A stretch of DNA of 64,000 nucleotides from Escherichia coli (lineage in GTDB: Bacteria; Pseudomonadota; Gammaproteobacteria; Enterobacterales; Enterobacteriaceae): assembly GCF_045037415.1 (NCBI RefSeq), contig NZ_CP173438.1. One strand, written 5' to 3'. A program made the position numbers. How positions within the stretch are numbered: position 1 is the stretch's first letter; each line of letters opens with the position of its first letter. Below are positions 9,001 to 12,000 of this stretch, one piece after another.

Positions 9001-12000
9001 TAATCCAGATTATTACTATTGTTCATGCTACTAATGGCAATCCAGTCAAAACTTTCAAACAATTATAGCAAACAAAAGAATGAACAATAGTAACAAGAGG
9101 CAACGAGCTAATTAGCTGTCTATAATTACACCGTACCATGGCCTTACTGATCAATTTTCACTCAACCACAACCTTCACCTTCGGTTTAGAAAGGATAATT
9201 TTGACCAGGTCGATGTATGTAACAGGTTTATAGAAATAATAACCCTGCTGAAATGTAATATTATTTTGGTTCAGATAGTCAAGTTGTTCTTTCGTTTCGA
9301 CACCTTCAGCGACGATACTGATCGAAAGTTTACGCGCCAGATCCAATACACAATCCAGAATTCGGGTTGATTCTGGGTCTGCGTTGACGCGGCCAACGAA
9401 ACTGTGATCAATTTTTATATAATCAATATGCAGGTCATGCAGATAAGAAAGCCCTGAGTAACCAGTACCGAAATCATCCAGCGCGATGACAAAACCATTT
9501 TCATGCAGAATGTTCAACCGCTGAACCAGACTTTCATCAACATTTAATGGTTCACGCTCGGTGACTTCCAGAACAAGGTTTAAATCGCGGCGGGTAAAAC
9601 TGTCACGGTAATTTAAGCACTCGTCGACAAACGTCGGCGAAACAATATGCGAGGCGCTAAAATTAATCCCAATATGAAAACCTTCCGGCAGTTTACTCGC
9701 GATAGCGTTCATCTGGGTGGCAACCTGATTCATCAGGCTTTGCGTAAGCGGAACGATTAATCCGCATTTTTCAGCAAGTGGAATAAATGCCGCAGGTGAT
9801 ATATATCCACCGTGAGGTTGTTTCCAGCGGGCTAACACCTCAACTCCCCGCAATGTCCCTTCCCGACCATTTACCACAGGTTGGTAAAAAGGGACGATCT
9901 CCCCATTATTTATAGCCCGTCGCAGGATCTCTTCAGGCGTTGCGCTTTTATTGAAATACCTATCAAGAAGGAAGGCAGCGGCGCAGGCGATTAACAGAAT
10001 AAATATCAAAATCCCAAAGCCTTTATCGATAAGTCTGTAGAAGCTAAAGAGACGTTCATTCGCTCGCGCTGGGGTCTACAGATAGCATGGTAGAGAGCAT
10101 CACAAATATCCACGCCGAAGATAAAATTTTCTCCAACTTCATCTAACCTATTAATTATTTAGAACAATGTAGGCAGAATTAAACAAATTAGGCGGGATAT
10201 CAGGCGTCAAGAATGGAAAACGAGCGCTCTCCATTCCTGTTTGCCCTCTGATATTGCGGATATATTAAGAAAGCATAACGCCTGAAATGCTCACTTTGCA
10301 TCAGCATAGTGATACAGCTGATGTTTATTCAAAAACCTTACTCAAGTTTTAAGAGAGCACGGATTCCCTGTCATTAATAATGATATCCGTTAGTGTAGTC
10401 TTATGCATTTCAATGTACTGCAAGATTTGCAGATAGAGATCAGAAAGAATAACACTGGTCTCATCTTTTAAACGCAACCGTAAAGCATGAGCAATAATAT
10501 GACTATCAACATATCCATGTGTCATGAACACCTCCTTCTCGAGGTTTTTAAACAAAGCACATTGAAAAATAAATCTCTCTGGGATTGAATTATTCATGTC
10601 AGCCTCGCAGGAATAGTGACCCAATAAAATTATGCTATGTATAGTCTAAAGCGACAGACAAAAATAAGATGAATGAGTTTTCTATAAACTTATACTTTAT
10701 AATTAAAAGTTACATATCATCAGCTGTGTATCGCAACACGATTTCCAGTGTTTTTCTAATCACATCAGCTTTGAGAATATCACTTGTTGTTTCCAGGGAG
10801 TGTATCAGACTTAAGATAATATTTTTATTATTAACATTATCACCTGAAAGCATTAAATTGGTCACAGCCTGCCCTAACACAGCTGACTCTTCTTCTAACA
10901 AATTACCTGAACTACGAAAGTAACTTGATAACGCTTTATCAGATATTGCATTATGAATAGTAGTATCTTCAAGCATGGTAACCTCTCATCTTACTTATGA
11001 AATTTTAATGTATTCTGTTTATTTTCTTACCAGTGAACATATTTTTATTGTCAGCGATCGCTGTTCTTCGGTTTGGCCCTCCTGTATCACTGTTGCTAAA
11101 ATCACGAATTATGCTGTCAATTAAATCTCGTCGGAAAGTATTTTCCTCAGCCGATTTCATTACGAGTAATTGCTTAATAAGAGTCTGCAACGAAAAATTT
11201 ATCTTCATGCGCAGTATCTGGAGCACCGCCTGGCCAGTAATTTCATATTTAATACTTTCATTATCAGATGTCTTCATAACGACTTCATAGCTAACCTGTT
11301 AAATAATCAGGCTGTTGCATTATTCAAAAAGCAACCCAATTAGTGCATTATAATGTTTCTGTTCCTCTTCCCCTGTCGCTTGTTCCAGTCGGCAAAGAAG
11401 TTTGGCACAAAGCGACTTTCGACTCAGATTACGTCCATCTTTCAAAATCTCAGTCACAATTTCCCCGAGAGTTTCCTGCTGAGTAGGCAAGTTAGCTTTT
11501 GCAAAGTAACGAGTGATTGCTCCTGCAGAATCTGAAGTCACTGAATTTTGATGCATGCTACGCCTCTGTTAAAAATGTTAATCAATGTTAAGTGAGGTAA
11601 CAATAGCAAACTTGTACGAAATATGTGTACAGAATGATAAATTAATTTTTCGCAATTAGTGCTAATTCATATAAAACAATGCATTACGATAAAACATATT
11701 GCATCATTTAAATGACAACCTATACAGGTTTTTTCACCAAACCGTCTTCAACCTTTTCCACTTTTTATCAATGTAAAGAAACGGTTATGTTTTGGTATTA
11801 AAAGAAAGACACAAGAAGATATGTCTGTTACCGTCTTACTCTCGCCTCGCCCATTACCCTGGATTGTTAATGCTTACCACCCTTATTTATCGTAGCCATA
11901 TACGTGACGCCGAACCTGTCAAAAAAATCGAAGAAATGGTTTCGATAGCAAATCGCAGGAACATGCGGTCTGACGTAACAGGGATCTTACTGTTTAATGG

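Follow-up and report, generated by a model that had tools for sequence, protein, structure and literature searches.

A pdeG remnant in Escherichia coli is the ycgG2/c1610 deletion allele and is predicted to encode a sensor-less c-di-GMP phosphodiesterase

Introduction

What becomes of a signaling enzyme when its gene loses the part that encodes the sensor? This question is raised by a 64,000-nucleotide stretch of Escherichia coli DNA (contig NZ_CP173438.1 of assembly GCF_045037415.1; the whole stretch is called the window below), in which pdeG, also named ycgG and encoding a cyclic di-GMP (c-di-GMP) phosphodiesterase, appears to lack its N-terminal sensor domain. A sequence-only reading of the window had proposed a 5′ deletion. 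Is the resulting gene merely decaying, or does it still specify an enzyme? Based on the analysis described here, the window holds the deletion allele called ycgG2 in strain IHE3034 and c1610 in strain CFT073, and the product of this allele is likely to be a phosphodiesterase that has shed its sensor.

The allele is already known from phylogroup B2, and Povolotsky and Hengge are reportedly the authors of its first description, in 2016. Two points were missed when the window was read from its sequence alone. The truncation is a fixed and published variant of the B2 lineage rather than a lesion specific to one strain, and related remnants are experimentally supported as translated, active phosphodiesterases (PMC6385356, PMC3484386, PMC10459773).

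A complete EAL domain behind a clipped transmembrane helix

The reference PdeG protein of a K-12-like genome has 507 amino acids, with a CSS-motif domain at residues 31-217 and an EAL domain at residues 251-486. The remnant in the window is an open reading frame (ORF) of 283 codons plus a stop codon on the minus strand (9158..10009 in the ORF list), equivalent to residues 225-507 of K-12 PdeG. Its putative start is a TTG codon (10007..10009, minus strand), the Leu225 codon of the full-length gene and the first ATG, GTG or TTG downstream of an in-frame TAG. The earlier description of the open region as a transmembrane (TM) helix plus an EAL domain of 283 amino acids in total was confirmed, except that the helix is clipped.

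A Pfam search recognizes the EAL domain (PF00563; E=1.8e-67, 227.6 bits against a cutoff of 31.3) over model positions 2-236 of 236, at remnant residues 27-262 (9224..9931, minus strand). No other domain was found in the 283 amino acids by this search, and the CSS-motif model (PF12792) is unmatched. The remnant thus departs from the architecture of CSS-domain transmembrane phosphodiesterases on two counts, having neither the periplasmic CSS-motif domain with its two conserved cysteines nor the TM1 signal anchor. The proposed inspection of the catalytic residues found every motif of the EAL signature intact, specifically Q43, E57-V-L-A-R61, N116, E148-V-T-E151, D178-D179, K199, E235-G-V-E238 and Q255, and these motifs align with those of the PA3825-EAL structure 4y9o (E=2e-66). 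An internal ATG at codon 93 was rejected as the start of an active enzyme, because a product beginning there would lose Q43 and E57-R61.

The second TM helix (TM2) of K-12 PdeG spans approximately residues 221-239, as judged from its Kyte-Doolittle peak, and the remnant begins at residue 225. If translated from the TTG, it retains 15 of the roughly 19 hydrophobic TM2 residues. The clipped helix, IFILLIACAAAFLL, is encoded at 9965..10006 (minus strand), with the initiator included in the count of 15. The sequence of these 15 residues is MIFILLIACAAAFLL, and their mean Kyte-Doolittle value of 3.06 denotes strong hydrophobicity.

A single deletion with nearly blunt ends

Pairwise and multiple alignment with four intact alleles shows that the window is missing 668 bp, consisting of 39 nt of leader and codons 1-210. 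The loss is clean, and it is seen relative to the K-12-like allele and to more closely related intact alleles, in support of the 5′ deletion proposed earlier. The segment carried the native ribosome-binding region, the ATG start codon, TM1 and the whole CSS-motif sensor. When residues 1-224 of K-12 PdeG are compared with the window by tblastn, the match is confined to residues 211-224, at 10051..10010. These relic codons (LFSFYRLIDKGFGI; 10010..10051, minus strand) derive from the linker between the CSS domain and TM2 and share the frame of the ORF, 5′ of any start codon. No copy of the deleted segment was found by blastn or tblastn in the rest of the window.

The junction lies at 10050..10052 (minus strand), where T10052 is the last base of the left flank, T10050 is the first base of the right flank, and C10051 could belong to either. 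In the intact APEC O2-211 and D10 alleles, the left flank ends in GAATGAACGTC and continues into the lost segment with ATTTTC, and the right flank is reached where GCCGCCAC gives way to TCTTTAGC. The window joins the two as GAATGAACGTCTCTTTAGC, the flank ends having 1 nt in common. Deletion by recombination between repeats was ruled out, since microhomology at the junction is just 1 nt and no repeat or insertion sequence (IS) is involved. From these sequence comparisons, the remnant allele evidently arose through one old 668-bp deletion whose ends were essentially blunt.

A 200-bp probe spanning the junction matches without interruption in 919 of 5,426 complete E. coli genomes, and 3,926 of these genomes contain the 668-bp segment. 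Direct checks of nine other carriers (A37, P4, CU39ES-1, NC101, UPEC 536, AF18, Z0117EC0054, APEC E19019 and CFT073) showed that each contains an identical 19-nt string at the junction. Strain LF82 and O25:H4 strains give full-length matches in a single piece, annotated as an un-named pseudogene, and the exact 283-amino-acid protein of the window is encoded on at least 1000 public contigs. Members of the protein cluster with lengths of 251-378 amino acids were rejected as alternative alleles, as these are partial sequences at contig ends. CFT073, 536, NC101, LF82 and the O25:H4 strains, which belong to sequence type 131 (ST131), are all members of phylogroup B2, whereas the strain with the closest intact allele found, CE10, belongs to phylogroup F. 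This distribution of carriers within B2 argues for one old event that has been inherited inside the phylogroup.

The same gene has been hit independently in other lineages. An internal stop interrupts pdeG in NMBU-W13E19 (L003:985-2508), and IS1 and IS3 insertions break the gene in other matches to the locus (hits H7, H61 and H78). In SL124 (L010:2288-3943), an IS1-bounded deletion took the genes from bluF through ymgC together with the N-terminal part of pdeG, and an IS1-bounded deletion in GN4143 (L011:1086-1783) removed upstream genes and left pdeG at full length.

The TTG codon and constraint on the retained frame

According to the published account of ycgG2, the TTG arose when the first codon left after the deletion underwent a point mutation (PMC6385356). 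This origin is not supported by the population data. The intact alleles of NMBU-W13E19, APEC O2-211, D10 and CE10 all encode Leu225 by TTG, and among the alleles examined only the K-12-like one departs from this, with TTA. Furthermore, an exact 78-mer that includes the TTG occurs in 1,507 genomes versus the 919 that carry the deletion, such that approximately 590 non-carriers have the TTG version. Thus, the TTG is a synonymous polymorphism that existed before the deletion.

The frame of 283 codons is open from this TTG in the window and in all nine other carriers (10/10), with neither an internal stop nor a frameshift. Selection on the frame was assessed with five distinct carrier alleles plus CFT073, a small sample in which recombination is evident (sites 577, 606 and 707 cannot all be placed on one tree). 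Among the carriers, pairwise synonymous divergence reaches 0.048, and the variation comprises 9 synonymous and 8 non-synonymous changes, the latter being fewer than expected under neutrality (binomial p=0.007). These numbers fit a remnant that is under relaxed, yet real, purifying constraint.

Experimental evidence from related alleles

The product of ycgG2 from the neonatal meningitis E. coli (NMEC) strain IHE3034 was described as a 283-amino-acid, 32-kDa protein with a TTG start, found in B2 extraintestinal pathogenic E. coli (ExPEC) (PMC6385356, Sci Rep 2019). In that study, the 32-kDa product was translated in vitro from the TTG and identified by mass spectrometry, the protein showed phosphodiesterase activity in a Vibrio cholerae reporter, at a lower level than full-length YcgG, and a ycgG2 knockout affected S-fimbriae as well as citrate and iron metabolism. 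Deletion of c1610 in the uropathogenic E. coli (UPEC) strain CFT073 increases FimA and adherence to bladder cells, and is complemented by a foreign phosphodiesterase (PMC3484386, Spurbeck 2012). A truncated YcgG from strain B-11870 is made more strongly than full-length YcgG and, when expressed, strongly reduces the rdar (red, dry and rough) morphotype and CsgD; the same authors mention, as an unpublished observation, that the deletion is present in all ST131 strains (PMC10459773). The reports that bear on c-di-GMP hydrolysis concern related alleles, through the activity of IHE3034 YcgG2 in V. cholerae and phosphodiesterase complementation of the c1610 deletion in CFT073; for the remnant in the window, such hydrolysis is predicted.

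Genomic context and possible expression signals

The gene order at the locus is minCDE ... ymgF - remnant - ymgC - ariR - ymgA - ycgZ / bluF - bluR, which is the usual E. coli neighborhood of pdeG. The last gene of the ycgZ-ymgA-ariR-ymgC operon is ymgC. It occupies 10349..10597 on the minus strand, as given by the RefSeq annotation of an identical sequence, and is co-directional with the remnant and upstream of it. The distance of about 340 bp noted earlier therefore holds, being 339 bp from the ymgC stop codon to the remnant TTG, although ymgC ends there rather than begins. The start of ymgC is ambiguous, with RefSeq using an ATG at 10597 (82 amino acids) and the mechanical ORF call a TTG at 10624 (91 amino acids).

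Alignment of the spacer shows that 297 nt between ymgC and pdeG are retained (10052..10348, minus strand). An RNA polymerase site with the sequence TTGACG-19-TATTTT has been proposed for ycgG in K-12 (PMC3946193, Shimada 2014). This site is located 5′ of the deleted segment. The window keeps its -35 hexamer, TTGACG, at 10210..10205, and the -10 element differs, as it likewise does in the intact allele of APEC O2-211.

The RNA of the ymgC-pdeG spacer is predicted to fold with unusual stability (z=-3.87 over 371 nt, with the region 10211-10284 singled out). A 14-bp hairpin at 10237..10211, situated within a longer CAGGCG...CGCCTG pairing, abuts the TTGACG hexamer and has no U-tract. An Rfam scan of this structured spacer returned a chance CrcZ fragment alone, on the opposite strand.

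Alternatives to a functional remnant

Could the short gene be an error, or the original form? Three errors could make the truncation illusory: a gap in the assembly, misreading of the stop codon, or a reference PdeG that is itself just as short by nature. The latter two had been named as findings that would overturn the earlier reading. We consider any such artefact barely credible and regard all three as excluded. The identical junction in 919 independently assembled complete genomes shows that it is not a sequencing error, and the reference protein, with its 507 residues and CSS domain, is anything but short. The in-frame TAG, placed about 60 nt upstream by the sequence-only reading, was verified at 10076..10078 (minus strand), 66 nt or 22 codons 5′ of the remnant TTG; it resides in the 5′ leader of the intact gene, is native non-coding sequence, and is also found in intact pdeG alleles. 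Equally far-fetched is the proposal that the short form is ancestral and that the long CSS-EAL form came about by insertion. In that case one would not expect codons 211-224 of the CSS-TM2 linker to persist in frame 5′ of the TTG. Intact alleles are moreover found in the 3,926 genomes noted above, those examined including K-12-like and CE10 strains, and the CSS-EAL architecture is common to the paralogues PdeB, PdeC, PdeD and PdeN (PMC5897775).

The only serious rival is that the remnant is a dead pseudogene, which lost its promoter-proximal signals, Shine-Dalgarno (SD) sequence and ATG, is not expressed to any meaningful extent, and remains open simply for lack of time. We judge this explanation to be unlikely, but several observations lean toward it and away from a functional enzyme. 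The NCBI annotation pipeline PGAP labels the locus a pseudogene, 'incomplete; missing N-terminus', in each carrier inspected, with the feature in the window beginning at 10051. A simple scan of the minus strand (8700-11800) found no consensus sigma-70 promoter between ymgC and the TTG, in counts that do not exceed those of shuffled sequences and are hence uninformative. The deletion left neither the native SD nor the ATG, and the SD-like AAAGG 5′ of the TTG pairs with the anti-SD at -5.1 kcal/mol, a weak match that is not discriminating because 21% of random 25-mers reach -4 kcal/mol or lower. The ratio of non-synonymous to synonymous changes is higher among carriers than between intact alleles (8:9 versus 3:19; Fisher p=0.03), and G460D, which alters the conserved EGVE motif, has become widespread enough to be found in 312 genomes. 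The gene has been broken independently elsewhere, through the internal stop, the IS1 and IS3 insertions and the IS1-mediated deletion in SL124 described above. Full-length pdeG is reportedly barely expressed in K-12, and the increase in c-di-GMP described after deletion of ycgG2 from IHE3034 did not reach significance (PMC6385356). The protein of the window also differs from c1610 at seven residues (T98R, V123I, S124L, E213A, G236D, L243F and V280I), and insertion of the 15-residue TM2 remnant into the membrane is uncertain. Against death of the gene stand the ten carriers that have remained free of stops and frameshifts despite synonymous divergence of up to about 4.8%, the shortfall of non-synonymous changes relative to neutral expectation, and the published in vitro translation (IHE3034) and knockout phenotypes (IHE3034 and CFT073). 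Also on the side of a functional remnant is the lack of a terminator-like site between ymgC and the TTG in the scan described above, whose counts carry the same limitation.

How a sensor-less phosphodiesterase might operate

If the remnant does specify a phosphodiesterase, translation would begin at the former Leu225 codon, its sole possible start, and yield the clipped TM2 followed by a catalytically complete EAL domain. Transcription might start inside the spacer that remains, or arrive by read-through of the ycgZ-ymgA-ariR-ymgC operon under BluR control, and would probably be weak. The output of such an enzyme would be set by its abundance, free of gating by the redox state of a periplasmic disulfide. 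By analogy with PdeC, the remaining TM2 segment may partly tether the product to the membrane and permit it to dimerize.

One of the five CSS-type phosphodiesterases of E. coli has thus lost its CSS redox gate. Loss of the gate is expected to alter the control of c-di-GMP, and hence of fimbriae, biofilm formation and motility, in the B2 lineage of extraintestinal pathogens. Approximately 17% of complete E. coli genomes label this locus a pseudogene, even though its product has experimental evidence.

Two forms of the catalytic motif

Most non-ST131 carriers have the substitution G236D (G460D in K-12 numbering), which converts EGVE to EDVE and adjoins the catalytic glutamate. These carriers include CFT073 (L019:21085-21978), 536, NC101 and the type strain ATCC 11775, and an exact 71-mer with the variant is present in 312 complete genomes. 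The IHE3034 protein likewise shows EDVE in a supplementary alignment (Fig. S2 of PMC6385356). The allele of the window, in contrast, is that of the O25:H4 strains, matches approximately 568 complete genomes at 99% identity or more, and keeps the canonical EGVE. One residue of a catalytic motif thus sets it apart from the tested alleles.

This difference in sequence raises the possibility, which we hold to be more doubtful than not, that there are two functionally distinct ycgG2 sub-alleles: an EGVE form that would be fully active, ungated and tethered by TM2, and an EDVE form, the classic ExPEC allele, that would be attenuated. It is speculative to ascribe the 'reduced activity' of the IHE3034 protein to G460D. 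If true, then published work has characterized the attenuated form while the pandemic ST131 lineage carries a stronger one, and NCBI annotation hides a fully active EGVE phosphodiesterase under the label of a pseudogene.

Other features of the window

Fragments of a ycgH-type autotransporter gene lie at 5245-5587 and 6904-8226, comprising beta-barrel segments that are frameshifted and truncated at the N-terminus, together with small ORFs labeled 'hypothetical'. RefSeq gives them the same annotation in strain AVS0467, whose sequence is identical there. The region from 14904 to about 47000 opens with a 3′ remnant of icd (14904-15071), after which come sitABCD and a lambdoid prophage. The window matches AVS0467 at 99.8% up to 15345, with one mismatch before 15079, and then diverges. 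A 256-amino-acid hypothetical ORF lies at 15528-16298, where AVS0467 has IS1, and the prophage segments are just 93-97% identical between the two. The window's copy of ISEc23 (IS66 family; 49152-51684) is 99.96% identical to that of AVS0467 and occupies a different position relative to the prophage.

Comparison with known systems

The nearest relatives of the remnant are the alleles that define this variant. CFT073 c1610 shares with the window the 19-nt junction, the TTG start, the length of 283 amino acids and the position between ymgC and ymgF, and IHE3034 YcgG2 shares the 283-amino-acid length and the N-terminus (supplementary Fig. S2). Both carry EDVE, whereas the window has the canonical EGVE. 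The YcgG protein of B-11870 is similarly truncated at its N-terminus, starts with TTG and retains the EAL domain only. G460D is not among its listed substitutions (PMC10459773); it has E437A, L467F and V504I, as do carriers A37 and P4, and the window has R322T and I347V instead.

Full-length PdeG of K-12 is encoded at the orthologous locus, and its residues 225-507 are 98% identical to the remnant, with five substitutions. It possesses TM1, the CSS-motif at 31-217 and a complete TM2, whereas the window is without codons 1-210 and the native start.

A comparable architecture is known from PdeC. In this paralogue, a disulfide in the CSS domain keeps the enzyme in a low-activity state, and a TM2+EAL fragment that arises through DegP and DegQ is inserted into the membrane, forms dimers and has high activity, in contrast to the EAL domain by itself, which is inactive (PMC5897775, EMBO J 2018). 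Like this fragment, the remnant has a transmembrane segment directly before the EAL domain and is devoid of a CSS gate. However, the PdeC fragment originates by proteolysis and has a full TM2, whereas the remnant is encoded genetically and lacks the first four residues of TM2. The closest solved structure is that of PA3825-EAL from Pseudomonas aeruginosa (PDB 4y9o and 4y8e), which is a domain construct made for crystallization rather than a natural truncation.

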